From: Terriglobia bacterium
GTDB lineage: Bacteria; Acidobacteriota; Terriglobia; Terriglobales; Acidobacteriaceae
Reading direction: 5' to 3'
DNA: 64,000 nt
Assembly: GCA_963734455.1 (NCBI GenBank)
Contig: CAVTHC010000004.1
Coordinates: 1,852-65,851, forward strand
The first letter of the stretch is position 1, and each line of letters starts with the position of its first letter. Positions 2,389 to 25,742 of the stretch are shown piece after piece. Position numbers and translations under genes: made by a program. The notes beneath the pieces were generated by a model that was given only the letters and a program-made list of their open reading frames with translations, made no database searches and was not told where the DNA came from.

Positions 2389-2465
<77 letters not shown>

Positions 2466-2508: not shown

Positions 2509-3615
2509 TTAAGCGGGTCGGCTCAATGCCAGCCCCACAATCTTGGAGTGCGCCTGCCCCATCTCGTCGGTCACAACGTCGCCATAGATGTTCATCGTCG
2601 TTCTGATGTCGCTATGCCGCATCAGCTTTTGTTGAACAGCGATTGGAGTCCCGACGGCATCCAGCCAGCTACGGTAGGTATGCCGAAAGGCGTGAGTGCC
2701 GAGATGCCCGATTCCCGCTTCCTTGGTTGCCCGCTCAAGTTCGCGCCAAAACCCCGTGTACGAATAGGGAAGGCGGCCCCGCTTCAAAGGGCTGGCAAAG
2801 ATCCAGTCCTCTTCGGCTGAGAATTGCGTGGTCTGCTTCCAGACCCGTAGTACCTCCAGCAGGCCCTTGTCGATTGCCAGGGACTTGCGAGACGAATCGG
2901 TCTTCACATCATCCACAATCTGCTTGACGATGCCCCGCTCAATGTTCAGCTTGGCACCGAGCCAGTCCACGTCTCGCCACTTCAGGGCAAGCAGTTCTGA
3001 GACTCGCAATCCCAAACAGACTGACACCAGAGCCATCGTGTTGAATGGTGTCTTCAGGAATGCAATCAGTCTCTGGAACTGCTCCACAGTGAGGCTTCGC
3101 GGTTTGCGAATCCGTCTTGTAGTACCCTTCACCACTACAAGGTCGATGGGGTTGCGTGCCACTTCCAGCACACCGCACCACATCGCAAACTCCATCAAGG
3201 CGCGAAGCAAGTTGCGAACGTGAGACCTGCTCTTGGGTGACAAATCGAGCTGGCGAAGCCAGAGTTCAACGGGTCTCGGCTGTACGTCACTGATAGACTT
3301 GTCGCCCCAGTGAGGCAAAATGTGGTTACGCAGCCATGAGCGATACACGCGAGAGGTCTCTGAACGCGACGGCATCCTTTCGGATTGGTAACGTTGAGCC
3401 AACTCTTTCACCGTGTGCGCTTGGCTGCTTGGTTTATTGACAACCGTCTGACGAAACGACTCTGCTGCTTGCCATGCGGCTGTCTTCGTTGGAAAGTCGC
3501 GTAACGAACCGATCAACTTGGTTCGGCGGACTCCGTTTTCGCAGAATAGGTAATTCCACACCCTGCGTCGCTTATCGCAAACAACAGATCCCTGCTTGTG
3601 CCGTGCTCGTTTCAT
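2509..3615 (-). CDS. tyrosine-type site-specific recombinase (phage integrase family)
   Basis: 368-aa ORF. C-terminal catalytic region HAFRHTYRSWL...LMRHSDIRTTMNIYGD (H-x-x-R and catalytic Y). Lies next to the tRNA gene. 4-nt overlap with the upstream excisionase-like ORF. Confidence 0.9.
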   Translation of the reverse strand: MKRARHKQGSVVCDKRRRVWNYLFCENGVRRTKLIGSLRDFPTKTAAWQAAESFRQTVVNKPSSQAHTVKELAQRYQSERMPSRSETSRVYRSWLRNHILPHWGDKSISDVQPRPVELWLRQLDLSPKSRSHVRNLLRALMEFAMWCGVLEVARNPIDLVVVKGTTRRIRKPRSLTVEQFQRLIAFLKTPFNTMALVSVCLGLRVSELLALKWRDVDWLGAKLNIERGIVKQIVDDVKTDSSRKSLAIDKGLLEVLRVWKQTTQFSAEEDWIFASPLKRGRLPYSYTGFWRELERATKEAGIGHLGTHAFRHTYRSWLDAVGTPIAVQQKLMRHSDIRTTMNIYGDVVTDEMGQAHSKIVGLALSRPA

Positions 3616-3983
3616 AGTCTCCTTTCGTTAGCGAGCACGGACGGCTGCGCCGAGCTTACCATAGGTTTCTTCTGGACTACGGCTGAGTCCAGATCCGATT
3701 GCAGGAAACGCCAGACTCGGCGCTGCGTGCCAGTGAGTGCGTAGGCTTTCAGTCTGCCTTGTCGCGCCCACAGCAGAATCGTGCGCACCTTGAAGTTGAG
3801 GTATTGTGCCGCCTCTGAGGCGGTTAGCCAGGTCGGGCGTTCCGCGTCGAACGGACCTCGGGCGACGGATTGACCGGAAGAGCGGTTAGGTTCAGAGGGT
3901 TGGGATTGTGGACACATGTTTGACTCCGTGGCGGCGGAGGCCGCCGTACAATTGATATTTCGCTTTTCTTCTTTCGCTTCCAT
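3612..3983 (-). CDS. excisionase-family helix-turn-helix DNA-binding protein (start may be the internal Met at 3917)
   Basis: C-terminal segment WLTASEAAQYLNFKVRTILLWARQGRLKAYALTGTQRRVWRFLQSDL resembles excisionase/MerR-type HTH proteins. Translationally coupled to the integrase. Confidence 0.6.
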   Translation of the reverse strand: MEAKEEKRNINCTAASAATESNMCPQSQPSEPNRSSGQSVARGPFDAERPTWLTASEAAQYLNFKVRTILLWARQGRLKAYALTGTQRRVWRFLQSDLDSAVVQKKPMVSSAQPSVLANERRL

Positions 3984-4140: not shown

Positions 4141-4992
4141 TCATTGCGCCGCCTGATCGGGTGATGTGGGCTTGCGCTGCGTTTTGTGCATGGAGCGAGT
4201 TGCTGTCGCGTTTGATGGTGTGTCCGGCGGCCTCGATGGAGCCACGACCGTGTTCGGGGTTGGTTCCGGTGCTGTTGAATTGATCCAGCGGTAGTACAGG
4301 GTTCCCAGCGCAAATCCCACAGCGAGAGCGGCACTGCACAGAGCGAGGACCGACCACTTGTATTCTCGAAGGAAGGTGTGCGTTAGATCGTGTGCTGCTC
4401 GCTTCGCGGTGGCCGTGGCATACTCGATGCTTGCGCGGATTTCATCGAGGGCCCTGCGGGCATCGCTGGCAGCGCCTCGATAGGAATCCGTCAGTTCCTT
4501 CGACGAGCGATCAAACTCTCCAGCGACTTGCTTCGTTTGTTTCGAGATGACGGCTAGGGCTTGTGCTGTTTCAGGAATGCCACTTGCCACAAACTGCTGG
4601 CGCAGACTCTCGCTGAGTTTCGCGGCAATAGCTGCGGCACTGATGCCCTCAGAGATTTCTGCTGGCAATTGCGCCAGCCGTTCTTCGAGTTGCCGGTGCA
4701 AAGCGACTGCATCTTGTCGGGCGGACTGAATGACCTTGATGCTCTGCTCTAAGATCGTGGCAAGCTTTTCCCGTTCAGTGGCGATCTGTGCGGGAGTTTG
4801 CCGCGTCACCAATGCGAGAAAGCCCATAGCGCGGGCAATCCGTAGCATCTCGTCATCGGCGGGCAAGCGGCGCAAGTGCGCCATGTCACGATACCAAAGC
4901 GGACGCTGTTCGGCGGGCAGCAGTTCGGCGATGTCATCGATGAAATCGGACTCAGCAGATTGTTCTTCTACGAGTTTGGGCTGGGCGTTCAC
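4141..4992 (-). CDS. hypothetical coiled-coil protein with a C-terminal transmembrane segment
   Basis: 283-aa ORF overlapping the parA-like stop by 4 nt. Long helical A/E/Q/R-rich region, then hydrophobic WSVLALCSAALAVGFALGTLYY. I recognise no family. Confidence 0.5.
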   Translation of the reverse strand: MNAQPKLVEEQSAESDFIDDIAELLPAEQRPLWYRDMAHLRRLPADDEMLRIARAMGFLALVTRQTPAQIATEREKLATILEQSIKVIQSARQDAVALHRQLEERLAQLPAEISEGISAAAIAAKLSESLRQQFVASGIPETAQALAVISKQTKQVAGEFDRSSKELTDSYRGAASDARRALDEIRASIEYATATAKRAAHDLTHTFLREYKWSVLALCSAALAVGFALGTLYYRWINSTAPEPTPNTVVAPSRPPDTPSNATATRSMHKTQRKPTSPDQAAQ

Positions 4993-5780
4993 GGCAAGAG
5001 CAACCCCTTGGCTTTGTCAATTTCCTCAAAGAGCCGACGCCGATAGCTCTGAGCGCGAATGACCAGTGAGGCTCTCTGCAACTCCGGGACTTTAAGCCGG
5101 CGTTCGACGATCTGGCCGAGTGTGACGCCGTGCTGTCGGGCGGGGTTTTCGAGTTCCGGCAGACGAAACTCCATCGTGAGGACAACTGGCTGGAAGACTG
5201 TGCGAAATTGCTTAGCTTGCTCGCTGTCCCGCCAGTAGGAGAAATCTGCTTGATGTGTCATGGCATTCTCAACCACGACGTAGTTCACTCTGTCTTGCAG
5301 ACGGGCAGCCCAGCTCAGAATGCTCTCCACGCTCGCCGGGTCGGGAGTGACAATGCCGATGGCCGTGAACGCCACACCGGTAGCTGCCACATCCTCAAAC
5401 ATGCTGTCGAACCACTCGTGGGTCACTTGACCGGAGCTAGCGCCCATGTCTGCGAGAATGATGGGAGCGCCGTCGGCTAGGTGGTCAACGAACGCGTCGA
5501 GGCCCGCAGAGGTGTGAATGTTCACCTTGGTCACCTTGCCATCGAAATAGTGCTTCAAACTTCCGCGCGATTTGTTCTCCGTGTCGAGGTCGAGAAGCGT
5601 GACCGGAATCTCATGACTCTCGAACCATTCGGCGAGAACGAGCATGAAGCTCGTTTTGCCGACTCCTCCTTTTCCTCCCATGGTGAGAATCACGCGCGTG
5701 GACGGGGCGGGGGACGGGACGACAGAAGGTGGATCGGAATTCTTCCGTTGGGCTGTTGCAGCAGTGTTGGAGTCGTACAT
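4989..5780 (-). CDS. ParA/MinD-like P-loop ATPase
   Basis: Deviant Walker A GGKGGVGKTS in a 263-aa ORF, in a mobile-element backbone context. Confidence 0.8.
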   Translation of the reverse strand: MYDSNTAATAQRKNSDPPSVVPSPAPSTRVILTMGGKGGVGKTSFMLVLAEWFESHEIPVTLLDLDTENKSRGSLKHYFDGKVTKVNIHTSAGLDAFVDHLADGAPIILADMGASSGQVTHEWFDSMFEDVAATGVAFTAIGIVTPDPASVESILSWAARLQDRVNYVVVENAMTHQADFSYWRDSEQAKQFRTVFQPVVLTMEFRLPELENPARQHGVTLGQIVERRLKVPELQRASLVIRAQSYRRRLFEEIDKAKGLLLP

Positions 5781-5786
5781 ATATGG

Positions 5787-6242
5787 CTACTCCTTCGTTC
5801 TCTGATTACGCTGAAGCCGCAACGGTTCGTCTGGGTTGTATTCAAACCAAAGTTTTTTCGCCCGCGTTTTCAGCGGTCGGTCTTTCAATTCCTTAATCGT
5901 CCTTGCAATGCCTTCCAGTGCCTTCTGAGGCCTTCCAGTGCTCTTGTCGTCCTCTGTGTCCTTGTAAGTACCTGTAAGTCCTTCCATGTTCTTCCTAGTC
6001 GCTGTTGTTCTCGAGGTCGAGAGCGACGGCTTCGCTTTTGACTTCGAACGTGCGAGCACAAAATCATTCACGGTGCTCACGCCCACCTTGAAGCCACAGG
6101 ATTTCTTGAGTACCTGCGCGATTTCACGATAGGTGCGGCCTCGTTTTCGCATCTCAGTAATTAACTCGCTGTACGGTTCCAAACGTGAGCGGGGTTCCTT
6201 GGTGGGCAGGCTGTTCAGTATGGCTTCAAATTTGGTGTCCAC
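5787..6242 (-). CDS. small DNA-binding (HTH) protein, function unknown
   Basis: N-terminal segment ELITEMRKRGRTYREIAQVLKKSCGFKVGVSTVNDFV looks like a resolvase/sigma-4-type HTH. Diverges from the relaxase gene across the candidate oriT. Confidence 0.5.
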   Translation of the reverse strand: MDTKFEAILNSLPTKEPRSRLEPYSELITEMRKRGRTYREIAQVLKKSCGFKVGVSTVNDFVLARSKSKAKPSLSTSRTTATRKNMEGLTGTYKDTEDDKSTGRPQKALEGIARTIKELKDRPLKTRAKKLWFEYNPDEPLRLQRNQRTKE

Positions 6243-6329
6243 GATTTCCTCCGAATGGGTGGTCTACAAGCTGGACTCGGGCGAAAGGTCGCTACTGATA
6301 CAGACGCCGAACGGAGGCCGAAGGGATGG

Positions 6330-6449
6330 CCGGACAAACACCGGATATGAACCGGATGTACACCGGACAAAGGCCGGTTGCACACCGGACACCTTACAGG
6401 TCGCGCACGTGGCACCGGACCTAACGCGAAGCGTTAGGGATGGTGTCTT
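6330..6449 (+). promoter_or_regulatory. candidate oriT / relaxosome assembly region
   Basis: CCGG(A/T) motifs start at 6330, 6341, 6352, 6363, 6374 and 6385 (exact 11-bp phasing), with another at 6415. Perfect 8-bp hairpin CCTAACGC-GAA-GCGTTAGG at 6420-6438. Followed by GGGATGGTGTCTT (6437-6449), 32 nt upstream of the relaxase start. Confidence 0.5.
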
Positions 6450-6480
6450 TCTGCAAGTGAGAAGTTAAAGGCTCCCGACC

Positions 6481-9351
6481 ATGCTTACCATTCGCGCCAT
6501 GTCCGACGGAACAGGCTACTCCGCACGCCATTTGGAGCATAGCGATTACTATGCCGAAGGCGAGCGCGTCACGGGCCAATGGCAGGGGCGAGGAGCGGAG
6601 TTGCTCGGACTGGCCGGGAAGGTTCAGTCGGAGCACTTTGAGGCACTGCGCCAGGGCCTCGATCCCCAAAGCGGCGAGTTCCTCCGGCAGCGCCACAGCG
6701 CCGACCGCACCGCCGCTGACGGCAGCACCCAAAGCCGAGGCCGAAACCTGTACGACTTCACGATGTCGGCTCCCAAGTCGGTTTCAATCATGGCCGAAGT
6801 GGGTGGGGATGCCAGACTGACGGAAGCGCATCGGAAGGCCGTTCAAGAAACGCTGAAGGAGTTGGAATGTCAAGCTGCAAGCCGGGTCCGAAGGCATGGG
6901 GCGAATGATAACCGCATCACGAGTAATCTTGTATTGGCCGTCTACCATCACGACACCAGCCGCGAACTTGACCCTCAGCTTCACACCCACGCGGTTGCCG
7001 CTAATCTGACCTATGACGGCGCTGAGGGCTGTTGGAAAGCTCTTCAAGCCTCTGGTATCTACGAGCAACGGGCTTACCTTACCGAGGTGTACCGGAACGC
7101 CTTGGCCCGCGAGGTGCGCTCTCTGGGTTACGGGATTGACGACCGGCGTAGCTCCAAAGGCAAGAACCTGGGCTTTGAGATCAAGGGTGTGTCGGATGAA
7201 TTGCTCGAAAAGTACAGCCAGCGCAGCGAGCAGCGCGACCAGGCGATTGCCGAGTTTGTCGAGAGTAAGGGTCGTCAGCCCAGCGACAACGAAATCGCCG
7301 TGCTGGTTCGTGAGTCGCGGGCCGATAAGCTGGTTGAGATTTCAACTGCAGAAGTGTATTCGCGCCAAGCCGCTCGCTTGACCCCAGAAGAGAGCCTAGC
7401 CCTTGAACGAATCCGCGGAACAGTCCTGGAGAGATCCCACACGGTGCGACCAGAACTGGCGAGCGCAGTTCCTTCGCTCGACTACGCCAAGCAGCACGTT
7501 TTTGAGCGTGTCTCCGTGGCGCTTGATCACGAACTGTTGACGGATGCACTTCGTCATGGCCGTGGCCGGATTGACTTGTCGGAACTGAAAGGAGAGTTTT
7601 CACTAGAGGAAAGCGCTGGCAAAATCCTGCGGGCTGGGAAGGAAGTCGCCACCCGCGAGAGTCTTGACCGTGAGCGGGACATGATCGAGCGGATCAATCG
7701 CGGGGTCGGTCAGTTTCAACGATTGGGCGGAGAGAATGAATTCGCTGCTTCCGAGTTCCTCCGTCCCGAGCAGAAAGAAGCAATCGAATTTGTTCTCAAT
7801 TCGCGTGACCTGGCGGTGAACATTCGCGGGGCGGCAGGCACCGGGAAAACCGTTACGCTGCAAGAGCTGCAGCGCGGCCTCGAAGAGAGTGGTCGCCGTG
7901 TGTTGGCGGTGGCTCCCACGATGAGCGCGGTTGAAGAACTGCAGAAAGTCGGCTTCGCGGATGCCATCACGGTGGAACGGCTGTTACAGGGCCAGAGTGC
8001 TCAAACAGACTTGTTCGGGAAAACGCTGATCGTGGATGAAGCAGGCATGGTTTCCGGTCGTCAAATGTCCGAGCTACTAAAGCTGGCCGACGAGCAATCA
8101 ACGCGAATCATCTTCAGTGGTGACACCAAGCAGATTCGAAGTGTCGAGGCCAGCGATGCTCTTCGGGTGCTGGAAAGAGAATCTCACTTAAAGAGTGTTT
8201 CGCTTAGCGAAGTGCGACGGCAGACCGCCCAAGGCTATCGCGACGCGATTCAGGAATTGCGCCGTGATCCTGAGCGCGGCTTCGAAAAGTTGGAACAAAT
8301 TGGTGCGGTGCGTGAGGTCCCCTGGTCCGACCGGGCACAGGCAGTTCAGCAAGCTTACTTAGAGAGTCAGGCGCAGGCCAATGCGAAGGGCCAACCACGC
8401 AGTGTGCTGGTTGTCGCCGCCACACACGAAGAGATTGGCCATATCACCGAAGCTATTCGCGCTGAGCGCACGCGCACGGGTGAACTGGGACAGAGTAGCC
8501 ACGAGCAGCACCACGTGCCACTGAACTGGACGAGTGCGGAGAAAAGTGACCTGCGGAACTATGCTGAAGGTCAGGTGCTGGAATTTCATCGGGCGGTCAA
8601 GGGCGTTGCTAGACATGAATCGCTGGAAGTCATCGGAGTGGAAAACGGCAAGGTCGTTGCCCGCAACGCGCGCGGCGAAGAGCACGAGTTCACAGCGAAG
8701 CAAGCGAAATGCTTTGAGGTCTATGAGCGCCGTGCCATTGAAATTGCTCCCAATGACAAGTTACTGCTGATGGCAAATCGGCGCGATCCTGATTTTCGCG
8801 CTACCAATGGCGAGCTGGTGACAGTTTCCCGAATTGACGAGCAGGGGCGCATTCATCTACAAGATAGCCGCACTCTACCGGAGAATTACAAGCAATTCAC
8901 ACACGGTTACGCTATCACCGCCCATCGTAGCCAGGGGAAGTCTGTGGATGCGGTTGTCATCTCCGCTGATGGGATGCGAAAGGAGTTGTTCTACGTAGCT
9001 GCGTCGCGGGGCCGGGAGAGCATCACGGTTGTGACCAGCGATAAAGACTTGCTGCGGGAGTCGGTAGCAAGCTCAGTCGCCCGGCAATCTGCTTCCGAAT
9101 TGTCGCGCAAAGCGCAAGGACCTTCAATGGAAAGGCTGAAACCGTCTTTACGCGAGCATGAACGCCGCGAACTGCCGGTTGCCCTTGAGCGGGGGTGCGA
9201 TAACGTACTCGAAGGAAAGGCGGAACTTAGAAAAGCTCCCACCCCCGAGACTGTGCAGACTATCGACCGGGAGAAACCCAGTTGCGAGCAGAAGCAGGAA
9301 CAATTCATAGACCCGGGACACTACTTCGGCATCAGCCGGTTAAGCCGGTAG
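6481..9351 (+). CDS. MOBF-family conjugative relaxase with C-terminal RecD/TraA-like helicase (TrwC/TraI type)
   Basis: 956-aa ORF. N-terminal relaxase motifs (YYAEG..., MSAPKSVS, histidine triad HHDTSRELDPQLHTHAV). Helicase Walker A GAAGTGKT and Walker B LIVDEAGMV. Confidence 0.9.
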   Translation: MLTIRAMSDGTGYSARHLEHSDYYAEGERVTGQWQGRGAELLGLAGKVQSEHFEALRQGLDPQSGEFLRQRHSADRTAADGSTQSRGRNLYDFTMSAPKSVSIMAEVGGDARLTEAHRKAVQETLKELECQAASRVRRHGANDNRITSNLVLAVYHHDTSRELDPQLHTHAVAANLTYDGAEGCWKALQASGIYEQRAYLTEVYRNALAREVRSLGYGIDDRRSSKGKNLGFEIKGVSDELLEKYSQRSEQRDQAIAEFVESKGRQPSDNEIAVLVRESRADKLVEISTAEVYSRQAARLTPEESLALERIRGTVLERSHTVRPELASAVPSLDYAKQHVFERVSVALDHELLTDALRHGRGRIDLSELKGEFSLEESAGKILRAGKEVATRESLDRERDMIERINRGVGQFQRLGGENEFAASEFLRPEQKEAIEFVLNSRDLAVNIRGAAGTGKTVTLQELQRGLEESGRRVLAVAPTMSAVEELQKVGFADAITVERLLQGQSAQTDLFGKTLIVDEAGMVSGRQMSELLKLADEQSTRIIFSGDTKQIRSVEASDALRVLERESHLKSVSLSEVRRQTAQGYRDAIQELRRDPERGFEKLEQIGAVREVPWSDRAQAVQQAYLESQAQANAKGQPRSVLVVAATHEEIGHITEAIRAERTRTGELGQSSHEQHHVPLNWTSAEKSDLRNYAEGQVLEFHRAVKGVARHESLEVIGVENGKVVARNARGEEHEFTAKQAKCFEVYERRAIEIAPNDKLLLMANRRDPDFRATNGELVTVSRIDEQGRIHLQDSRTLPENYKQFTHGYAITAHRSQGKSVDAVVISADGMRKELFYVAASRGRESITVVTSDKDLLRESVASSVARQSASELSRKAQGPSMERLKPSLREHERRELPVALERGCDNVLEGKAELRKAPTPETVQTIDREKPSCEQKQEQFIDPGHYFGISRLSR

Positions 9352-9951
9352 CTTGATCACGAAAGCGTAGCCGATATGCATACCTTGGCAATCGTCGCCA
9401 AACATTACAGTGGCGGGTCGCACAAGTGGCGGTAAACCGTTAGGGATCAGTACCACGACCCAGCCGAGCCGGGAAGGAGTTCCGCCCTGGGTCGCGTCGG
9501 TCGCATCGGGATCAGTGGCTCGACACTGTGTTCCTGCTGATGCACTGGCTCTTCCGTGGGTTCTGCTGTGGGTTCTGCTGTTCCAGTTCCACTCTAGGTA
9601 CTGGCGCACGGTTTGGTTTACCTGCGCCTCGTCCCGAGCAGGTGGGCCGTCATGGACAAGAGCGTCAAACTCGGTCGGAAAGCCGACTAGTAGAAAATGT
9701 CCAAGCTGTGATTCTCCTGTGAAATCAACGCGTCTGGCAATGCCCTCACAACTCTTATTCTGATTTCAGAACAAGCCAACTTTTCTAGATTTTTCCACAG
9801 CCTCTTCGATTAGATTGCTGCTTCTCTTTTTGCAACTTTGGTCTCTCGTGCGCGAGGAACAGCCCAGGCTCTACCCCGTGACGCTCGTAGAAGAACAGCA
9901 ATCCGTTTTGAACAGAGCCGGAAACATGCGCCAATAGCGTCAGGAGCGACA

Positions 9952-12900
9952 ATGAAAACCTCCGCTAGAATTTTCTTCCTCTTGCTAATCGTGTCATTCG
10001 TCACCAATGTTGCCCGCGCGGACTGCCCCCAGGGAGGGAATGCAACGTGCATAACGTCGTTCACGATTTCGCCGGCTGCAATTCCGGGCGACAACACGAC
10101 CACAGCTCTCGGCCAAGCCACGGCTCATATTGCTACCGGATACAATAGTTGGGAATTGGAGATAAGGCAATCGGGTAGTCTCGGCTGGGTTTGCCATCCG
10201 CCCGCAGTGCATCTTAGTCCGAACAGCGGCGGCGTGGGCTTTGCCGGGGGTTGTGCCGTCACAGGCGCGAGCGTGTCTTTTGAAATGTTTGGGCTGAACG
10301 GGGATTCGTCCCCCGTGCAGGTCGCCATAACAGGCGCAGCCGCTTACAACAACGATCCTGGAATAGACACGTCACTGACCCTGAACCCGAGACCCCCAGC
10401 TCTACCTCCCGACCAGGACCCTGACGGCCCGTGCCCCACATGCGGATATGGCGGCGCTCCTATTAACTTCGGTAATGGCGACACCTGGATCAGTCAACAG
10501 GACTACTCGATTCCGGGTCTTGGTGGCGGCCTGGTTCTCGGTCGGACCTGGAACAGCCTCTGGTCGTTAAGCCAGCCGCCCGAGGAATCCGGCATCTTTG
10601 GCGACAGTTGGCGCAGCAATTTTGAGGAACGCATACAGGTTTTGACGGGAGGAGTGGCCAAATATTGGAAGGGTAACGGAAGCAAGATTTTCTACGCATA
10701 CGACAGCGGCTCCGGCGGGTATGTCAGGACCGCACCAGCCGACGACCGTACAACACTGGATTACGACTCTATCACCATGCTCTGGACCGCTACGCAAAAG
10801 GACGGAGTCAGAAGAATCTTTAACAATGCGGGCTATCTAACCTCAATTGTGGACCGCAACGGCAACACCACCACCATCGTTGTGGACGCGGCGAACCAGA
10901 ACCGTATTTCCAGCGTCACCGATGCCGCTGGCCGTACCTTGACCTTCAATTATGCCAATGCCAATCCGCATCTTTGCACCAGCGTCTCGGATTCCGTTGG
11001 CACCGTCGCAACCTACAATTACGACTCCTCGGGCCGGTTGACCCAGGTCGTCTATCCCGACGGTTCGCAGTTCAATTTCAGCTATGACACGGGCAACCTG
11101 ATTCTGAGCGTGACCGATTCGCTGGGCCAGACCCTGGAAACGCACACTTACGACTCCCAGAATCGAGGGCTGAGTTCAGCGCAGGCCAGCGGAGTCAATC
11201 AGGTTTCACTCTATTATTCAAGTTCGACGGGCTCACCGGTGGTCATATACAACTCCCTAGGCCAAGCGTCCTGGGCCTACTTTTCTACGGTCGCACAGCG
11301 TCGATACCTGACTCAACCTCCCACGAATGTCGGTTGCGCCACTTGTGGATATGTACCGGGTTCTAGCTTCCTTCTCTCCGCTTCTGGCGACACGACGGCG
11401 TTCACTGATGGCAACAGCAACACCACCTACTACACGTATGACAGCCAGGGCAACGTCACCAGCAAGTCACTTCCTGACGCTTACCAGACGGGTGGCTACG
11501 ATATTTGGCAGTACACCTACAATGCTTTTAGCGAAGTTCTTTCGGTCACCGATCCGCTGAACCAGACCACCACCAATTCCTATGACAGCAACGGAAATCT
11601 GCTTTCCACTACTACGCCATCCCCCGATGGTTCAACCGCTGGCAGCGTCACGAGCTTCACCTACGACAGCCACGGCCAGCTCACGCGGATTACTGATCCG
11701 TTGTCAAACCAGACCAACATCGCCTACTACTCGACCGGTTTAATCCACACCATTACGGACACTCAGTCAGACGTGACCACCTATGCTTATGACGCTCGCG
11801 GCAACCGCACCAGCGTAACCGATGCCGCCAGTAATCAGACCCAGTTCCAGTACGACTCCATGAACCGGCTGACGAAGATCACCTACCCGGACAGCAGCAC
11901 GGTGCAGTTCGCCTATGACAACCGGGGGCGTCGCACGTCGGTCACCGACCAGAACAGCAAGGTCACGCAGTACGCCTACGACGACGCCAACCGCCTGACC
12001 TCGGTCACTGACGCGGCCAGCCATCAGACGCAGTACACGTATGACACGGAAAACAACCTGACCGACATCTACGATGCCGCCAGCAACCACACCCATTTCG
12101 ACTACATCATTGGCCGCCAACTGCAAAAAATCACGTTCCCCTCGGGTTTGTACGAGCAGTATTCTTTGGATAACGCCGACAACCTGGTCTACAAGTGGGA
12201 CCGAAAGAACCAGCAGCTCGCTTTGTCTCGCGATGCCCAGAACCGGGTCATTCGCCGCATCGATTCCGGCAACACGGTCTACTACACCTATGACGCCGCT
12301 GGCCGCATGACTCAGGCGCAGGATAACACCGGCACCTACGGTTTCACCTACGACAACATGGGCCGGTTGACCGAGACCACCACGAACTATACATTCCTGA
12401 CCGCGCGCGGATTCAACGTCCAATACGCCTACGATGCTGCGTCAAACCGGGTGACCTTGACCGATCCCGAGAGCGGCACCACGCACTACACCTATGACAC
12501 GCTTAACCGGCTGACGGGTCTAAACGACTTCCAGTCGCACAATTTCACATTCGGCTACGACGCCCTCAGCCGCCGTTCCCAGCTCACCCGGCCCAACGGC
12601 ATCAACACCAATTATTCCTACGACAACGTTTCTCACCTGCTTTCGGTGCTGCATCAACTCGGCAGCACCACAGTGGACGGGGCCAGCTATGTCTACGATT
12701 CAGCGGGCAACCGCACGGCCAAGACCGACCAGGCCAGTAGTGTTACGTCGAATTACGGCTACGACGCGATTTATCAGCTGACGGGGGTGTCCCAAGGGTC
12801 TACGTCTACGGAGAGCTACACCTACGACACGGTGGGTAATAGGCTGTCGTCTTTAGGCGTGTCACCGTACAGCTACAACTCGTCGAACGAGCTGACCTCG

Positions 12901-13911
12901 ACTCCGAGTACGACCTACACCTACGACAATAACGGGAGCACAGTGACGAAGGTCGACTCCACCGGCACGACCACATACACATGGGACTACGTGAACCAGT
13001 TGAGCAGTGTCGCGCTGCCGGGCTCGGGCGGGACGGTTAGCTTCAAGTACGACCCCTTCGGGCGGCGGATTTACAAATCTTCATCAAGCAGCACTTCGGT
13101 GTTCGCCTACGACGGCGATGACCTCATCGAAGAGACAAATTCAGCCGGAGCGGTCGTTGCTCGTTATTCTCTGACGGGAAATATCGATGAGCCTCTGGCG
13201 ATGCTGCGGAGCGGCGGGACAAGCTACTATGAGCAGGATGATCTTGGCTCTGTCACTTCACTCACCAATGGTAGCGGGTCACTAGGGCAAACATACACAT
13301 TCGATTCATTCGGAAACCAAACTGCGTCCGCTGGTTCTCTTACAAATCCAATCCGCTTCGCGGGCCGCGAGTTCGATGCTGAATCGAGCCTCTATTATAT
13401 GCGCGCCAGGTATTTCGATCCCGTCGCCGGGAGGTTCATCAGCGAAGACCCGAACGGTAACGGGACTCTGTACGATGATATGAATCTCTACGTCTACACC
13501 GAAAACAATCCCACTAATTGGACTGATCCTTTGGGGTTGTACACCTTGAAAAAGGGCGGAAAACATCCGCCTCTTCCGCCTTCTCCAGTAATCGATGCCC
13601 TTCTCAAGTGCATCGAAGCCAAGACGGGGCTTCAGCTTACGGTGACGTCAACGTCCGAGGATATTCCGCAGCATGCGCCTGGAACTCCACACAGAAGGGG
13701 CGTCGCTGTTGACCTTAAATACGATTCGGGAAATGCCGACAAAATCCTGTGTGCGGCTTCGGGTTGTGGCGCTGGCTTTGGGCTGGACGAGGGAAAGCAT
13801 CCGTCGGCACAGTCCACGGGCAATCACATTCATCTTCAAATCCCGCCCGGCAAGAATGGCGGGCGCGGCGACCTTCCGAAGAAACCGTGCAGTGATAGCG
13901 GGTGCAAATGA
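9952..13911 (+). CDS. RHS/YD-repeat polymorphic toxin with Sec-type signal peptide and LAS/M15-like metallopeptidase C-terminal domain
   Basis: ATG at 9952 preceded by AGGAG. Signal MKTSARIFFLLLIVSFVTNVARA. Dozens of YD repeats (xYxYDxxGNR/L). Core-end motif NPTNWTDPLGL. The 123-aa tip (13540-13908) carries PHRRGVAVD (HxxGxAxD) and HIH (HxH). Confidence 0.9.
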   Translation: MKTSARIFFLLLIVSFVTNVARADCPQGGNATCITSFTISPAAIPGDNTTTALGQATAHIATGYNSWELEIRQSGSLGWVCHPPAVHLSPNSGGVGFAGGCAVTGASVSFEMFGLNGDSSPVQVAITGAAAYNNDPGIDTSLTLNPRPPALPPDQDPDGPCPTCGYGGAPINFGNGDTWISQQDYSIPGLGGGLVLGRTWNSLWSLSQPPEESGIFGDSWRSNFEERIQVLTGGVAKYWKGNGSKIFYAYDSGSGGYVRTAPADDRTTLDYDSITMLWTATQKDGVRRIFNNAGYLTSIVDRNGNTTTIVVDAANQNRISSVTDAAGRTLTFNYANANPHLCTSVSDSVGTVATYNYDSSGRLTQVVYPDGSQFNFSYDTGNLILSVTDSLGQTLETHTYDSQNRGLSSAQASGVNQVSLYYSSSTGSPVVIYNSLGQASWAYFSTVAQRRYLTQPPTNVGCATCGYVPGSSFLLSASGDTTAFTDGNSNTTYYTYDSQGNVTSKSLPDAYQTGGYDIWQYTYNAFSEVLSVTDPLNQTTTNSYDSNGNLLSTTTPSPDGSTAGSVTSFTYDSHGQLTRITDPLSNQTNIAYYSTGLIHTITDTQSDVTTYAYDARGNRTSVTDAASNQTQFQYDSMNRLTKITYPDSSTVQFAYDNRGRRTSVTDQNSKVTQYAYDDANRLTSVTDAASHQTQYTYDTENNLTDIYDAASNHTHFDYIIGRQLQKITFPSGLYEQYSLDNADNLVYKWDRKNQQLALSRDAQNRVIRRIDSGNTVYYTYDAAGRMTQAQDNTGTYGFTYDNMGRLTETTTNYTFLTARGFNVQYAYDAASNRVTLTDPESGTTHYTYDTLNRLTGLNDFQSHNFTFGYDALSRRSQLTRPNGINTNYSYDNVSHLLSVLHQLGSTTVDGASYVYDSAGNRTAKTDQASSVTSNYGYDAIYQLTGVSQGSTSTESYTYDTVGNRLSSLGVSPYSYNSSNELTSTPSTTYTYDNNGSTVTKVDSTGTTTYTWDYVNQLSSVALPGSGGTVSFKYDPFGRRIYKSSSSSTSVFAYDGDDLIEETNSAGAVVARYSLTGNIDEPLAMLRSGGTSYYEQDDLGSVTSLTNGSGSLGQTYTFDSFGNQTASAGSLTNPIRFAGREFDAESSLYYMRARYFDPVAGRFISEDPNGNGTLYDDMNLYVYTENNPTNWTDPLGLYTLKKGGKHPPLPPSPVIDALLKCIEAKTGLQLTVTSTSEDIPQHAPGTPHRRGVAVDLKYDSGNADKILCAASGCGAGFGLDEGKHPSAQSTGNHIHLQIPPGKNGGRGDLPKKPCSDSGCK
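11891..13061 (+). repeat. 1171-bp direct repeat, copy 1 (inside the full-length rhs)
   Basis: Sense and antisense ORF translations are identical to those of 14689-15859. Boundaries were determined by reading both copies. Confidence 0.9.
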
Positions 13912-14531
13912 TCGCATTCGGGCAAATTCGCATCTATGCGTCGCGGATCGCTTTATCGTTGATGTTCTTGCTTACGGCGACTCCGACCTTCGCCCAGCAG
14001 GGATCATCTCCGCCAGCGCCTGCTAAACCCAGTGAAGAGTCTGCGCTCTGCAAGCGGGGATCTCTACCTCCGGACGTAGAGAGTCGCCTCAAAACAGAGT
14101 TCGGCTCTTGGAAGATTCAGGAACCCGCAGACCTCAGCCCGCATGCCCACGAAAGATGGGAATCTGAGAAGCCACGGGCGTGCCCGGGTATCGCTGTGGG
14201 GCAATTCGAGATCGCCAAGATGCTCTCCTATGCTGTTCTACTGGTCCCCCAAAGTCACACAGTCGCAGGCTACAAATTCCTCGTCTTCAGTCCTAAAGCC
14301 GGGCAGCCGTCCTACGAGATGAGGGTTGCTGATTCGGGTGATAGTGGAGCCGCTAACTTTTTCATCCACACGACACCGATCAGCAAGTTCTTCGATGAGC
14401 CATCCAGGAAGAAATTTCAAGCCCACACCGTGGACGGCATCTTACTCGTAGACTCAGCCGAAAATGAATATGGGGTAGAGGTGTACTTTTGGTCCAGCGG
14501 CCACTATCGGCACGAGCCGATAGACTACTAG
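13908..14531 (+). CDS. candidate cognate immunity protein, secreted/periplasmic
   Basis: ATG overlaps the rhs stop (ATGA at 13908-13911). Signal peptide SLMFLLTATPTFAQQ. I recognise no family. The position immediately 3' of the toxin tip is the classic immunity position. Confidence 0.6.
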   Translation: MIAFGQIRIYASRIALSLMFLLTATPTFAQQGSSPPAPAKPSEESALCKRGSLPPDVESRLKTEFGSWKIQEPADLSPHAHERWESEKPRACPGIAVGQFEIAKMLSYAVLLVPQSHTVAGYKFLVFSPKAGQPSYEMRVADSGDSGAANFFIHTTPISKFFDEPSRKKFQAHTVDGILLVDSAENEYGVEVYFWSSGHYRHEPIDY

Positions 14532-14688
14532 CTTGGCCTGACTCCCCCCTTTAGCTGTCTCTGAGGTCCTGCCAGGGCAGGGTTAACGTGCAGCGCCGGG
14601 GAGCGCCGGTGCCCAGGCCCCCAAGTGATCGGACCGCCGCTAATCTATGCCCAGCTACTTGCGGTTGCGAATCGCGATGACGAGGGCA

Positions 14689-17200: not shown

Positions 17201-17771
17201 CTATGCAGGTGATGCCGCGATGAGGGGTAATTGGGATTGGGAGATCATCCCCGAAGGCACCGTCGAATGGATCGGTTTCTCTATTGCGCTGTTGGTTGTT
17301 CTGGTAGCCGCCTGGTGGATATCCCGATGAACTGATCCTTTTTAGCCCCTCGATCCGCTGCCCGCGGTCCGGTGCTGTGGGGTTCTGCCCGCAGGAAGTG
17401 AGCGGCTGGTAAAGTCAAAGCCCGGCCATTGCTGCGCATGGGGTTTACCAAGAGAAGTTTCTGGAGCTTCTTCCGGGTCATGGGCCGCAGCGAAGCCAGG
17501 TACCCGGCAAGCTCGTAGGGGTGAAACCTCCCACACGGCGGCCTGAAATCCTGGCAGCTCGGCGGCAAACTCGGGATGCTGCTCGGCGACCTCAGCGAAG
17601 GTCAGCAGCTTCTCTCTCACCAGATAGTCCAGGGCATTCTTCAGGCCGAAGCGCCGCCGGATGGTGCGGGTGGCTTGGCACTGCTTTCTCCAAATCTTGT
17701 GGCCGTGCATGAGGGAAACTATAGCGCCGTCGTGCGTCGTTCGCCAAGCTGGGCCAACAACAACTCGGAGC

Positions 17772-17870
17772 AAGACACCATCCCTTGCGCCTGCGGCGCA
17801 ATGAAAAGCGCACTGCCGGAAAGCACCCGGCGTCCGGTGAGCATCCGGGCTTTGTCCGGTGTCTGTCCGG
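17772..17870 (-). promoter_or_regulatory. degenerate second copy of the oriT-like module (minus orientation)
   Basis: The reverse complement contains a 34-mer with 30/34 identity to 6360-6393 (17829-17862). TCCGG motifs are phased at 11 bp (17833/17844/17855/17866). It has the hairpin TTGCGCC-TGC-GGCGCAA (17785-17801) and the identical 13-mer GGGATGGTGTCTT (reverse complement of 17772-17784). Confidence 0.5.
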
Positions 17871-17989
17871 CGTGGCGCCCGATCTCAGTTCGAGGGTTTG
17901 AGCGGCTCCCCGATTCCTGACACACACTGAGGGTTAGTTTCCGGAAATCTCCAGTTTTGTTTGTGACAGAAAATGGGAGCGGTTCAGCC

Positions 17990-18319
17990 CAGCTCATGCG
18001 TCATGTAATGCTGAGTCAGTTCCGCAAACGTCACGCGGCCCCGGAATTCTGATTTGTTGATTTGAGTTTGCAGATGTTACCTTTCTACTTCGGCCGACGC
18101 GGCAGACTCGGTAGGGAAATCGCTCACAAGGGCAACTACCACCTTGTGCTCGACTCGCCGTGAGTCTAGAGGCCGGGTTACGAAATAGCGCAACACCCAG
18201 GTTTGTCCATTCTTGCGGGATTCCACCCGCAACCTTCCACGTTGAAACCGCGCCATCTTAAATCGTCTCCTGTCTTGGCGCGGGAGACTGCCGTGACTGC
18301 GCGCGGACGGCATCCGCAA
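17990..18319 (-). pseudogene. remnant of a second tyrosine integrase (N-terminal part only, in-frame stop)
   Basis: MARFQRGRLRVESRKNGQTWVLRYF...DFPTESAASAEVER-stop-HLQTQINKSEFRGRVTFAELTQHYMTHELG parallels the N-terminus of the intact integrase (…VWNYLFCENG…DFPTKTAAWQAAE…). A TAA interrupts the frame at 18077-18079, and integrase-like sequence ends at about 17990. Confidence 0.65.
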
Positions 18320-24284: not shown

Positions 24285-24351
24285 GTGGCAGGATAGAACA
24301 AACTTAGTCTTGGACTCTTCGAAAGTATGGCCGGTTTTGAACTGATCATGT

Positions 24352-25415: not shown

Positions 25416-25742
25416 TCAGGTGGATTCGAGTCCTACCTGAGGAGCCATTTCTCTCCCGATTTTCCAGCCGCTTACGTTGAATCCCACGCCGGTGGCCCAC
25501 GCAGGCCCGGTTCTGGCTTGCGTGGGTATGATTGGCGATGCCGGGCATTTCTTCAGAGCGATACTTTGCGCGGAACTGCGGACCGTCCGCCCACCGGCCT
25601 GGTCTTTTGCTACCCATCGGCGGTCGCGATGCGGATTGGTTCGCGGCAGGCCGGTGCTAAGTTCACACTTCTCGCCCGGAGCGGCTCCACAAGTCGGACA
25701 GCGAACGGCGAGTACCTGCTTCGGGCTGAATACTTTGGCCAC
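25416..25742 (-). CDS. possible small zinc-ribbon protein (only the N-terminal ~45 aa look protein-like)
   Basis: N-terminus is MAKVFSPKQVLAVRCPTCGAAPGEKCELSTGLPRTNPHRDRR (CxxC...C...H). The remainder is low-complexity and the ORF ends inside the attR repeat. Confidence 0.3.
   Translation of the reverse strand: MAKVFSPKQVLAVRCPTCGAAPGEKCELSTGLPRTNPHRDRRWVAKDQAGGRTVRSSAQSIALKKCPASPIIPTQARTGPAWATGVGFNVSGWKIGREMAPQVGLEST
25425..25449 (+). repeat. attR core (25-bp direct repeat, copy 2)
   Basis: Exact copy of 2441-2465 (the tRNA-Asn 3' end) without the rest of the tRNA. Confidence 0.8.

Follow-up and report, generated by a model that had tools for sequence, protein, structure and literature searches.

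A candidate oriT beside a MobF relaxase gene in a tRNA-Asn-integrated island of Acidobacteriota

What is the function of the direct repeats, hairpin and 13-nt core that lie just in front of a MobF (TrwC-type) relaxase gene in a Terriglobia contig? The window analysed here is a stretch of 64,000 nucleotides of that contig, and the locus occupies positions 6330-6449 within it (Table 1). The original prediction had read it as a candidate oriT, and most of its description of the DNA holds. The gap between the divergent HTH and relaxase genes is indeed 238 bp (6243-6480). Direct reading places CCGGW (CCGGA or CCGGT) at 6330, 6341, 6352, 6363, 6374 and 6385, in agreement with the six motifs at exact 11-bp spacing that had been reported, and the 8-bp stem with its GAA loop is perfect, as claimed. 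One detail must be corrected. CACCGGA had been counted in four of the six repeats; only three occurrences are in phase (6339, 6361 and 6383), while the fourth, at 6413, is out of phase and sits beside the hairpin.

Triplets of CCGGW at 11-bp spacing number seven in the window and are confined to two places, against 0.00 in dinucleotide shuffles. Perfect 8-bp hairpins occur 19 times where simulations give about four, and the hairpin by itself was accordingly rejected as a significant feature; its weight derives from conservation and not from mere existence. The exact 13-mer, GGGATGGTGTCTT, is present in two copies, at 6437 on the + strand and at 17784 on the - strand, the first of which ends 31 nt before the relaxase gene. 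A known RNA element was rejected as a reading of the locus, as an Rfam scan of 5500-7000 gave no match at E up to 1. No sigma-70 promoter or intrinsic terminator was found in a scan of 6150-6550, by a method that says little for Acidobacteriota.

Table 1. Features of the island and of its two oriT-like sites (window coordinates)
Feature	Position	Strand	Remark
attL, 3' end of tRNA-Asn (tRNA 2389-2463), left end of island	2436..2465	+	
Tyrosine integrase	2509-3615	-	Phage_integrase 1.3e-23
Excisionase-like HTH_17 protein	3612-3983	-	HTH_17 2.5e-11; excisionase domain TIGR01764
283-aa coiled-coil protein (p283) with C-terminal membrane anchor	4141..4992	-	member of conserved module
ParA/MinD-like ATPase, 263 aa, Walker A GGKGGVGKTS	4989..5780	-	member of conserved mobilization module
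151-aa HTH protein, divergent from array	5787..6242	-	putative array-binding accessory protein and autoregulator
CCGG(A/T) direct-repeat array, six units, exact 11-bp period	6330..6389	+	read directly
Small distal inverted repeat GTCGC-GCAC-GTGGC	6400..6413	+	pairs only via G.T wobbles in the window
GGCACCGGA, 5' flank of hairpin	6411..6419	+	contains extra CACCGGA; complementary to TGGTGTC of nick core
Nick-proximal hairpin CCTAACGC-GAA-GCGTTAGG, perfect 8-bp stem	6420..6438	+	direct reading and covariation
Candidate nick core GGGATGGTGTCTT	6437..6449	+	overlaps stem by 2 nt
MobF relaxase-helicase, 956 aa, N-terminal TrwC domain, C-terminal SF1 helicase	6481..9351	+	Pfam, NCBIfam, PDB
Orphan oriT-like module (copy 2)	17771..17870	-	CCGGA at 17870, 17859, 17848 and 17837, 11 bp apart
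Copy 2 candidate nick core, identical GGGATGGTGTCTT	17772-17784	-	
Copy 2 hairpin TTGCGCC-GCA-GGCGCAA	17785-17801	-	
Copy 2 distal inverted repeat	17815-17831	-	
attR, direct repeat of tRNA-Asn 3' end, right end of island	25420..25449	+	

Alignment of homologous elements had been proposed as a check on the oriT reading. The comparison set comprised 80 related loci in Acidobacteriota genomes, with relaxases 67-96% identical. The unit travels with this relaxase family: 62 loci keep a divergent gene for a 151-aa HTH protein, 4-12 direct repeats phased at 11 bp, the distal inverted repeat, the hairpin and an invariant GGGATGGTGTCT, so that phasing, stem and GGGATGGTGTCT are all conserved. By the hairpin and GGGATGGTGTCT the count is likewise 62; 12 of the remaining 18 loci end before the expected place, and the other six, which have sufficient flanking DNA, gave no site at the threshold applied. 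Close-clade loci carry the unit 44 nt upstream of the relaxase start; in distant-clade loci it is found just downstream of the relaxase gene and on the opposite strand. Whichever the side or strand, array and HTH gene accompany it without exception, and the HTH gene always adjoins the array in relaxase-bearing loci. The distal inverted repeat is perfect in relatives (GTCGCGCACGCGAC). Many, not all, distant-clade folds predict a short G+C-rich stem of unrelated sequence at its position (e.g. GCCCGC-TCA-GCGGGC), and the second site of the window, copy 2, likewise has a predicted short G+C-rich distal stem.

Conservation is most telling in the hairpin and the core. Across 32 distinct sequences, 97.3% of stem cells are paired. 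Three of the eight stem pairs change on both sides (AACGC/GCGTT versus AAGCC/GGCTT), and in locus L045 an A-T pair has become T-A. The covariation score was reached by no shuffle and reflects few independent events, namely a clade-level CG/GC swap, loci L003 and L045, and the wholly different stem of copy 2. The loop has a free middle base (GAA, GCA, GGA) or else is 4 nt long. Of the 32 distinct aligned sequences, 31 have GGGATGGTGTCT unaltered and the other (L047) carries one substitution. The base that follows it may be T, A, C or G; conservation stops after GTCT, an edge that is expected for a nick core.

Unlike in the classical MOBF picture, the presumptive nick core of the close clade is able to pair with the 5' flank and hence to be hidden in a stem. 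This extended outer stem appears in six of seven close-clade folds, and in L023 it forms a perfect 17-bp palindrome. Its cells are Watson-Crick in 83 cases out of 112, G.T in 21 and mismatched in 8. Taking the G.T wobbles as proof of single-strand selection was considered and rejected as a weak argument, since a wobble results from any transition at five of the six positions in the A/C-rich 5' arm. With some 140 related sequences compared in all, the oriT assignment appears unusually well supported by conservation.

The arrangement in the window is that of R388, R46/pKM101/pCU1 and F: an inverted repeat and, a few nucleotides later on the same strand, a G/T-rich nick core. In the window the stem is followed by GATGGTGT(CT), within the ~8-11 nt expected of a MOBF oriT. 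The mapped nick of F, marked here by a slash, is ...GTTTTTGC GTGGGGTGT/GGTGC and lies 9 nt from the stem (PMC3074121); that of R388 is ...GGTGCG TATTGTCT/ATAGCC, at 8 nt (PMC4814116). By analogy, the + strand is predicted to be nicked between 6446 and 6447 (GGTGT/CT) or between 6448 and 6449 (GTCT/T). These options read GATGGTGT/CT and TGGTGTCT/T, to be compared with GTGGGGTGT/GG in F and TATTGTCT/AT in R388, and in either register six of eight bases match mapped MOBF nick sites (PMC3074121, PMC4814116). The GGTGT of the window is also that of F (GGGGTGT/) and of R46 (AGGTGT/), the R46 nick TTAGGTGT/AT having been deduced by aligning L081 with R388 and not being a mapped site; the TGTCT is that of R388 (TTGTCT/). 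The nic GGTGTCT/T that had been put forward therefore stands as one of two equally good registers, GGTGT/CT fitting somewhat better because GTGT closes the related block of acidobacterial plasmids and because of the "6+2" rule of R388 (PMC3264647).

The adjacent gene encodes a TrwC/TraI-type relaxase, as do the MOBF plasmids R388, R46 and F. Pfam identifies TrwC (2.5e-76) and AAA_30 (4.3e-42) in it, and NCBIfam identifies MobF (219.5 bits, cut-off 100) and relax_trwC (201.5, cut-off 145.5). Its PDB matches are pCU1 TraI (3L57), TrwC (1OMH) and F TraI (1P4D), with E from 1e-41 to 1e-38. Both the histidine triad, in an HxDxxxxxxHxH motif (HHDTSRELDPQLHTHAV), and the N-terminal tyrosines expected of the catalytic site are visible. 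The relaxase domain is 37% identical to R46 TraI (E 2e-43), and among the plasmid relaxases of PLSDB none shares more than 42% identity with the protein. There are differences from the classical systems. The R388 and R46 MOB genes enter the recipient last, whereas the relaxase gene of the close clade, being 3' of the nick, would enter first. A TrwA-type ribbon-helix-helix gene is absent. Finally, the host belongs to the Acidobacteriota, and the element is a tRNA-integrated island without secretion system or coupling protein, unlike R388, R46 and F.

This island extends over ~23 kb from attL to attR and is inserted in tRNA-Asn. Its att repeats are 93% identical over 30 nt and include a 23-nt exact repeat, with 0 expected by chance. 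A division of the island into two tandem elements was considered and dropped, as no third att copy was found with up to three mismatches. Among the island ORFs scanned, Pfam revealed neither a secretion system nor a coupling protein, and none was found in locus L044, which has the same compact layout. The island thus has an integrase, flanking att sites, its own relaxase and a candidate oriT, without mating-pair-formation genes, which is the make-up of an IME. Together with the conserved association with the relaxase family, the covarying stem and a core resembling mapped nick sites, this supports the original prediction, and we consider it likely that the repeats, hairpin and 13-mer constitute the oriT of this IME.

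A different question is what the repeats contribute. They had been thought to be sites for an accessory protein, and two observations support this. One is their register. Of 189 intervals between repeats, 152 measure 11 bp. Counted from the 13-mer, the start of the last repeat falls at -52/-53 in 35 of 42 sites of the IME type and in 52 of 55 of the copy-2 type. The register is held across lineages with different words, hairpins and loop lengths. The other observation is that the repeat word varies by lineage and covaries with the recognition helix of the HTH protein. CCGGA is paired with ST[VIL]NDFV in three separate lineages; elsewhere CCGAACA goes with ST[LI]HDFV, TCGAACA with STIHHFV, TGGACA with TAVNNFV, GGGACA with SAVSRFV, CCCAACA with STIFDFV and CGCAACA with STVQRFI. 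In 35 close-clade loci conservation reaches at least 90% in the CCGGA cores, against 40-80% in the spacers. As the word tracks the helix, the HTH protein very probably binds the array.

The HTH protein matches no Pfam or NCBIfam family above threshold, giving only sub-threshold matches to generic HTH families in Pfam, and a PDB profile search returned chance-level matches only. An AlphaFold model, built from a shallower alignment of database homologues and reliable for the HTH domain alone, has three helices at residues 22-68 (pLDDT 86-90). The C-terminus carries the conserved motif RIAALK..F.YDP.EPLRL. The extra CACCGGAC beside the hairpin (6413-6420) was considered as a seventh binding site and judged unlikely, being out of phase and 30 nt past the sixth repeat. 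Among 16 unique close-clade sequences, 8 have changes in its CCGG core, GACAC being retained, and the distant clade mostly has GAAC, GATC or AAAC at this position, with no link to the repeat word.

The HTH gene is followed by those for a ParA-like ATPase and p283. The ATPase is kept in 29 close-clade and 38 distant-clade loci and p283 in 28 and 41, respectively, the distant clade having the gene order parA-p283-relaxase. In Pfam the ATPase matches CbiA/ParA near threshold; in NCBIfam it has weak, sub-threshold matches to ParA and to the RP4 TraL model, the latter (E 8.5e-4) far below the cut-off. For p283, Pfam and NCBIfam gave no family match.

The closest known analogue of the repeat array is the StbA/stbS array beside the oriT of R388 and R46. 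In R388, stbS is made of two sets of five 9-bp repeats with 2-bp spacers, hence an 11-bp period, in the stbABC promoter beside oriT (PMC3098194). It is bound by the HTH protein StbA, a ParA-like stbB follows, and stbS is required for stability and not for conjugation (PMC3098194; bioRxiv 10.1101/2022.04.29.490116). The R46 sequence has the same layout. In light of this precedent, it is conceivable, if somewhat doubtful, that the array is mainly a centromere and operator of the StbA/stbS or ParR/parC kind, with the HTH protein and the ATPase stabilising the excised circle and repressing the operon. On this view the oriT core would remain the hairpin with the 13-mer, and the array would simply neighbour the nick site and be dispensable for nicking. 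As in StbA/stbS-StbB-StbC of R388/R46 and in TraK-TraL-TraM of RP4, the promoter region of a three-gene operon (here HTH-parA-p283) next to oriT contains an array of 11-bp period. The order of small HTH protein, ParA-like ATPase and third, poorly conserved protein is shared with Stb, both operons are divergent from the relaxase side, and the ATPase has a classical deviant Walker A (KGGVGKT).

Homology between the proteins, however, was not detected. Comparison of the HTH protein with R46 StbA gave a BLASTP E of 2.9 and an hhalign probability of 5%, and the Foldseek matches of its model in the PDB include no StbA and none with E < 0.9; StbA homology was rejected at the levels of sequence, profile and fold, leaving the array without a neighbour recognisably homologous to StbA or RP4 TraK. 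For the ATPase, the BLASTP comparison with R46 StbB was not significant. Geometry differs as well. Every case described has its stb genes 3' of the nick (PMC3098194). If the strand that carries the 13-mer is the one nicked, the array and operon of the window are 5' of the nick, on the hairpin side and not in the leading region, which makes the analogy incomplete. There is a single array and not two sets of five, and it stands in a fixed register with the nick core.

Three further points weigh against a purely segregational array. The ATPase gene of the distant clade lies apart from the HTH gene, in a parA-p283-relaxase operon, which ties the ATPase to transfer. The 52-53 nt register to the nick core is exact across lineages. 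Finally, array, hairpin and core remain attached to one another in 78 copy-2-type loci that lack an adjacent HTH gene or ATPase gene, from which the array would appear to be more than an operator. Segregation and transfer roles are, in any case, not mutually exclusive. A parallel for a role in transfer, also discussed in PMC3098194, is offered by the T-DNA borders of Agrobacterium, where VirC1, a ParA-like ATPase, and VirC2, a small DNA-binding protein, act with overdrive to promote relaxosome assembly or delivery by the nick site. Here, too, a ParA-like ATPase and a small putative DNA-binding protein are encoded next to a relaxase nick site. The two systems were compared by description only and differ in that VirC2 is a ribbon-helix-helix protein, overdrive is not phased at 11 bp and VirD2 is of MOBP type.

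Direct repeats beside a hairpin also describe many plasmid origins. The repeats might thus be iterons, and the hairpin and core a double- or single-strand origin of rolling-circle or primase-dependent replication. The relaxase of some integrative elements does drive rolling-circle replication from oriT, and among the copy-2-type loci there is one (L083) with a gene for a large DnaG/Toprim primase but none for a relaxase. We nonetheless consider a replication origin very improbable. No Rep initiator was found in the island ORFs (Pfam) or in the related loci scanned, and the gene next to the array encodes an HTH protein without Rep similarity. The module accompanies a MobF relaxase in 62 loci, and its core is similar to MOBF nick sites that have been mapped by experiment (PMC3074121, PMC4814116). 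Should the relaxase also start replication here, this would be an added use of the oriT rather than an alternative identity.

Copy 2 has no HTH, ParA-like, p283 or relaxase gene beside it. Sites of its type were found on 78 contigs from metagenomes, and no relaxase is encoded in the stretches covered; many of these contigs are short, and a distant relaxase gene is possible. The neighbours of copy 2, a downstream p122 homologue and a convergent RHS gene, match those of the 78 loci. A reading of L083 as a complete 8.2-kb circle was rejected: its 8234-bp repeat begins only ~150 nt past the nick core and its two oriT regions differ, so that L083 is a tandem arrangement or an assembly of variants. 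In having array, hairpin and core without a relaxase in the DNA covered, the copy-2 type resembles oriT-only plasmids and islands that mimic an ICE oriT. This is consistent with elements that rely on a relaxase borrowed in trans (PMC10123127, PMC11389934).

Does copy 2 work as a second oriT of this element, as in two-oriT elements, or is it the relic of another one? It has the identical 13-mer, four phased repeats of copy 1's word CCGGA, an intact hairpin and the same -53 register. Its stem, however, is entirely different from that of copy 1 and unlike the stem of relaxase-encoding islands. In R388, changing both hairpin arms while keeping the structure lowered mobilisation by five orders of magnitude (PMC3264647), which counts against a working second oriT. 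No second copy was seen in the DNA covered of close-clade loci, and besides the neighbours shared with relaxase-less loci, a broken integrase N-terminus adjoins copy 2. We therefore think a second functional oriT unlikely. More speculatively, the two putative nick sites are inverted and flank the relaxase gene, an arrangement that would be a substrate for relaxase-mediated oriT-oriT recombination. Recombination of this kind could be the cause of the inversion of the relaxase gene relative to the oriT module between the two clades.

We return to the oriT at 6330-6449. What the analysis shows directly are the sequence elements and how far they are conserved, the covarying stem, the register, the correspondence of repeat word and recognition helix, the family of the relaxase and the ends of the island. 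Nicking with its strand and position, HTH binding, what the ParA-like protein and p283 do, and the helper element are inferred. In this mechanism, the 151-aa HTH protein would load onto the six CCGGA repeats after excision. With one repeat per helical turn, it would occupy one face of the DNA, and the array would end exactly five turns (52-53 nt) from the nick core. The MobF relaxase would recognise the hairpin and the single-stranded GGGATGGTGT(CT) after the stem, and would cut the + strand at one of the two positions given above, by analogy with TrwC and F TraI. It would stay on the 5' end and pilot the strand through the type IV secretion system of a co-resident conjugative element. Delivery or positioning of the relaxosome is the probable task of p283, with its membrane anchor, and of the ParA-like ATPase, in the manner of StbB and VirC1 in known systems. 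From its position in the promoter region, the array probably doubles as operator of the HTH-parA-p283 operon.

On a wider scale, one may speculate, with confidence well below even, about a three-tier chain of hitch-hiking in soil Acidobacteriota in which the repeat word is a swappable specificity code. Conjugative MPF_T/MOBF plasmids (pACPOL1, pACIX903, pACIX905) would give the mating channel. The tRNA-integrated islands would give the relaxase, the HTH "address reader", the ParA-like ATPase and p283. A third tier of relaxase-less elements would carry the address only, in the form of a CCGGAC array, the -53 register, the GGGATGGTGTCT core and a hairpin of their own, and would ferry RHS toxin cassettes and toxin-antitoxin genes. 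If this is true, the repeat word, as read by the recognition helix, would decide which relaxosome pairs with which oriT.

The site is of an ordinary kind and is new for Acidobacteriota in the literature searched, in which no oriT or IME family of this phylum was found described. Acidobacteriota are among the most abundant soil bacteria and are hard to manipulate genetically; to our knowledge, almost nothing of their conjugation biology has been described. The 120-bp candidate oriT and the four-gene mobilization module may be a starting point for shuttle and mobilisation tools in these bacteria. HTH helices paired with 11-bp-phased words in a fixed register would make a compact system for accessory-protein specificity of the relaxosome, and the existence of the copy-2 class suggests oriT-only hitch-hiking as a possible route by which soil bacteria exchange RHS toxin cargo.

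The phased repeats, hairpin, 13-mer and 238-bp gap between the 151-aa and 956-aa ORFs proposed in the original prediction were confirmed by direct reading of the sequence, except that CACCGGA occurs at three of the six phased motifs and not four; the fourth CACCGGA is real but unphased, at position 6413. Three CCGGW motifs at 11-bp spacing never occurred in dinucleotide shuffles of the window, and the exact 13-mer occurs in it twice; perfect 8-bp hairpins are common (19 observed versus about 4 expected). Together, repeats, hairpin and 13-mer very probably constitute an oriT, as had been proposed: the unit recurs in 62 of 80 related loci, its stem covaries and it resembles MOBF nick sites. On all features that can be judged from sequence, the nick-proximal part qualifies as a MOBF oriT; all functional steps of the module are ones that we infer.

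Coordinates of the oriT module, its second copy and other features of the island (window positions)
Feature	Position	Strand	Remarks
tRNA-Asn gene	2389-2463
Exact repeat of the final 23 nt of tRNA-Asn	25425-25447
Island bounds	2389-2465 (tRNA-Asn); 25420-25449 (direct repeat of its 3' end)
ParA-like ATPase	left of module	minus	Walker A KGGVGKT
283-aa coiled-coil protein (p283)	left of module	minus	membrane anchor at C-terminus
Excisionase-like HTH_17 protein	left of module	minus	domain searches
Tyrosine integrase	left of module	minus	domain searches
HTH protein, 151 aa	5787-6242	minus
Phased CCGGA/CCGGT repeats	starts 6330, 6341, 6352, 6363, 6374, 6385	plus	direct reading of sequence
Motif CACCGGAC	6413-6420		read directly
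Hairpin CCTAACGC-GAA-GCGTTAGG	6420-6438		read directly
13-mer GGGATGGTGTCTT	6437-6449		read directly
Relaxase, 956 aa	6481-9351	plus
Two RHS genes	9838-16685
Duplication in RHS region	11891-12190; 14689-14988		at least 300 nt, 100% identity, offset 2798
Small ORF	17342-17710
Copy 2 of module	17771-17870	minus	four CCGGA at 11-bp period, distal inverted repeat, hairpin, 13-mer
Broken integrase N-terminus	17985-18256	minus	in-frame stop, then truncation
IS21-family insertion sequence	21713-24363		istA 21811-23544; istB 23541-24284; 43-nt terminal inverted repeats

The 956-aa ORF encodes a MobF relaxase-helicase (Pfam TrwC, 2.5e-76; AAA_30, 4.3e-42; NCBIfam MobF, 219.5 bits against a cut-off of 100). 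Its closest solved relatives are pCU1 TraI, TrwC and F TraI, and its relaxase domain and that of R46 TraI share 37% identity. The repeated end of the tRNA-Asn gene defines the element as a ~23-kb island. A search allowing up to 3 mismatches revealed no third att copy, so the island, though composite in content, seems to be one integration unit; its right half contains RHS toxin genes, ORFs that could not be annotated and the IS21 copy. Among the island ORFs scanned, none had a type IV secretion or coupling-protein domain, and the island is an integrative mobilizable element (IME). Further repeat families in the RHS region share the offset of the duplication, and the region resembles a full RHS gene with a duplicated C-terminal (orphan toxin) cassette behind it.

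Scanning a single genome per species gave 80 loci with relaxase domains 67-96% identical to that of the window, all from Acidobacteriota metagenome-assembled genomes and split between two layouts. In the close clade (34 loci, mostly Acidobacteriaceae/Terriglobia; relaxases 83-96% identical), the same intergenic region lies 44 nt upstream of the relaxase start, in the order p283, parA, HTH (leftward), oriT module, relaxase (rightward). CCGGA cores are at least 90% conserved, with variable spacers between them; the 13-mer is conserved, as is the hairpin, whose loop varies at its middle base (GAA, GCA or GGA). Phasing, hairpin and 13-mer, which the original prediction proposed to compare across homologous elements, are thus conserved in relatives. 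In the distant clade (mostly Bryobacterales; relaxases 67-79% identical), another gene abuts the relaxase start, and the hairpin and GGGATGGTGTCT are found about 100-250 nt past the relaxase stop, the order being parA, p283, relaxase (rightward), oriT module (opposite strand), HTH gene (rightward). Among the 18 loci without the site, 12 end short of the expected place and 6 gave no match at the chosen threshold. With the 151-aa protein as query, tblastn placed the HTH gene next to the module in both layouts, always divergent from the array side; the unit therefore consists of a divergent HTH gene, phased repeats, a small distal inverted repeat (between array and hairpin), the hairpin and GGGATGGTGTCT. 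ParA-like and p283 genes are conserved throughout, in an order that differs between layouts.

Two loci (L043, L076) carry a ~1.5-kb insertion that truncates the array and parts it from the HTH gene, leaving hairpin and core intact. Another, L044, shares the compact design and has an integrase, transposases and a defence gene, and no secretion system was found in it; a frameshift interrupts its relaxase gene (L044:10001-12764). The 120 database relaxase proteins listed all measure 260-558 aa, far below 956 aa. These short proteins and the L044 split may stem from contig ends or assembly errors and not from genuine pseudogenes.

When 32 distinct sequences were aligned and pairs counted, the 8-bp stem was paired in 97.3% of cells, with both-sided changes in three of eight pairs. 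The observed covariation score was reached by none of 500 shuffles, and shifting the partner columns abolished pairing. Independent covariation events are few. The stem is swapped at clade level (AACGC/GCGTT versus AAGCC/GGCTT); L003, a close-clade locus, carries the distant-clade variant AAGCC/GGCTT, L045 has an A-T to T-A change, and the wholly different stem of copy 2, the orphan module, is counted among the independent events.

The block A(A/G)GGGATGGTGTCT is almost invariant and is followed by T, A, C or G. Nicks have been mapped experimentally in F (GCAAAAAC-TT-GTTTTTGC GTGGGGTGT|GGTGC; PMC3074121) and R388 (GCGCACC-GAAA-GGTGCG TATTGTCT|ATAGCC; PMC4814116); alignment with R388 predicts ...GCGTTAGGTGT|ATAGCAGG for R46. 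Two registers are possible in the window, each matching six of eight bases: that of F (and R46 as predicted), GATGGTGT|CT, 8 nt past the stem, and that of R388, TGGTGTCT|T, 10 nt past it. R388 requires 6 nt 5' and 2 nt 3' of its nick (PMC3264647). GGTGT|CT is favored because conservation runs exactly 2 nt past GGTGT, fitting this need, and because the similarity to three Acidobacteriaceae conjugative plasmids (relaxases 38-42% identical to the window's), which carry GACACTCCATCCC-N5-GGGT(G/T)GTGT upstream of an accessory-gene/coupling-protein/MobF operon, ends after GTGT. On these alignments the nick may well fall at GGTGT|CT; GTCT|T, the position originally suggested, survives as one of the two matching registers but ranks second, as a plausible though less probable site, and a nick elsewhere would be improbable.

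In L008 (L008:581-650), the octamer GGTGTCTT is repeated five times in tandem from within the 13-mer, followed by two copies of GGTGCCTT; slippage or faulty processing at this putative nick region could have produced them. The three plasmids, pACPOL1 (L160:2300-2370), pACIX903 (L161:2330-2395) and pACIX905 (L162:2225-2295), encode MPF_T, a coupling protein and MobF and are candidate helpers. A hairpin, ATGTGC-TTC-GCACAT, precedes the transfer operon in two of them and is degenerate in pACIX903; the two arms of GACACTCCATCCC-N5-GGGT(G/T)GTGT, an imperfect inverted repeat, resemble the island 13-mer (GGGATGGAGTGTC on the other strand).

The motif CACCGGAC beside the hairpin is out of phase with the array, and its CCGG core is changed in 8 of 16 unique close-clade sequences, GACAC being conserved. 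GACACC(G) and the (T)GGTGTC of the nick core are complementary, hence an outer stem around the hairpin in six of seven close-clade folds (+ strand folded as DNA). At L023 (L023:9941-9977), outer and inner stems are fused into a perfect 17-bp palindrome, GACACCATCCCTAACGC-GAA-GCGTTAGGGATGGTGTC, which therefore places the nick core on both strands. Distant-clade loci mostly have GAAC, GATC or AAAC at this position, unlinked to the repeat word. Phase, core changes and pairing with the nick core make a seventh HTH site improbable; CACCGGAC more probably belongs to an extended inverted repeat. The outer stem would bury the nick core.

In each lineage the hairpin is preceded by 4-12 direct repeats of 11-bp period, in a variable word: CCGGA(C/T), (G/C)NGGGACA, (C/T)TGGACA, TCGAACA, CCGAA(C/T)A, T(T/C)GAA(T/C), CCCAACA or CGCAACA. 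The predicted recognition helix of the adjacent HTH protein, third in a confident three-helix domain (residues 22-68) of the AlphaFold model, shifts in step with the word.

Repeat words and predicted recognition helices of the adjacent HTH proteins
Repeat word	Helix	Loci
CCGGA	ST[VIL]NDFV	close clade; L035, L075, L078; L060
CCGAACA	ST[LI]HDFV	distant clade
TCGAACA	STIHHFV	distant clade
TGGACA	TAVNNFV	distant clade
GGGACA	SAVSRFV	distant clade
T(T/C)GAA(T/C)	SNIYYFV or SNIHHFL	distant clade
CCCAACA	STIFDFV	distant clade
CGCAACA	STVQRFI	distant clade

The L035, L075 and L078 proteins, only 35-44% identical to the window's HTH protein, appear nearest to those of TGGACA/GGGACA users by a common C-terminal tail, so that CCGGA would pair with N-D in three separate lineages. 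We infer from the covariation that the HTH protein recognizes the repeats. The final repeat begins at -52 or -53 from the nick core in 35 of 42 IME-type sites and in 52 of 55 unique sites of the copy-2 type, independently of repeat word, stem sequence and loop length; 52.5 nt equal five B-DNA turns. Word-helix covariation and the locking of the array to the nick core support the earlier proposal that the phased repeats are accessory-protein sites. At the C-terminus of the HTH family (alignment A1), past a variable low-confidence linker, a second block is conserved, RIAALKxR ... F.YDP.EPLRL, through which the protein might contact the relaxase or the ParA-like protein.

The closest analogue of the array is stbS of R388 and R46 (R46 sequence), consisting of 9-bp repeats with 2-bp spacers in the promoter of stbA (HTH), stbB (ParA-like) and stbC; it adjoins oriT and diverges from the MOB genes; StbA binds it, and it governs both stability and conjugation (PMC3098194; bioRxiv 10.1101/2022.04.29.490116). 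Sequence, profile and fold comparisons detected no relationship between the window HTH protein and StbA, and operon and array lie 5' of the nick in the window whereas Stb lies 3'. Membership in Stb therefore fails on two defining points; in function the array may resemble a Stb system or an accessory-protein array, yet it is not to be classed as Stb.

Copy 2 is inverted relative to copy 1 (6330-6449) and 11.3 kb away, the two nick cores flanking the relaxase and RHS genes. Its 13-mer is identical to that of copy 1; its 7-bp hairpin, TTGCGCC-GCA-GGCGCAA, has an unrelated stem. Altering the hairpin arms of R388 with structure retained lowers mobilization by five orders of magnitude (PMC3264647). 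No HTH, ParA-like, p283 or relaxase gene lies beside copy 2; directly upstream is the broken integrase N-terminus (MARFQRGRLRVESRKNGQTWVLRYF...), weakly similar to the island integrase (E 1e-4). A pattern scan of metagenomes for the copy-2 stem and core found 78 contigs, nearly all with CCGGAC arrays in the same register and none with relatives of the relaxase, HTH, ParA-like or p283 genes within the stretches examined. Genes upstream are co-directional with the module; C-terminal peptides suggest a toxin and an antitoxin, and one such gene, in contig L083, was confirmed as XRE-type HTH. A homologue of the small ORF and a convergent RHS gene frequently follow downstream, just as in the window; one locus has a large primase, another an integrase. 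Copy 2 together with the RHS cassette is therefore most readily taken for part of a second element type, one lacking a relaxase, that accreted in the same island. L083 (JGI26340J50214_10000548), which encodes a 1083-aa DnaG/Toprim primase, has two different copy-2-like modules at a distance of 8234 bp, with the same sequence after each (100% identical from ~150 nt past the nick core over the ~4.4 kb left in the contig); either the arrangement is a tandem one or variants were assembled together.

Three aspects go beyond the routine: a natural specificity series pairing HTH helix with repeat word, an exact five-turn register from array to nick, and an abundant relaxase-less class bearing the same address.
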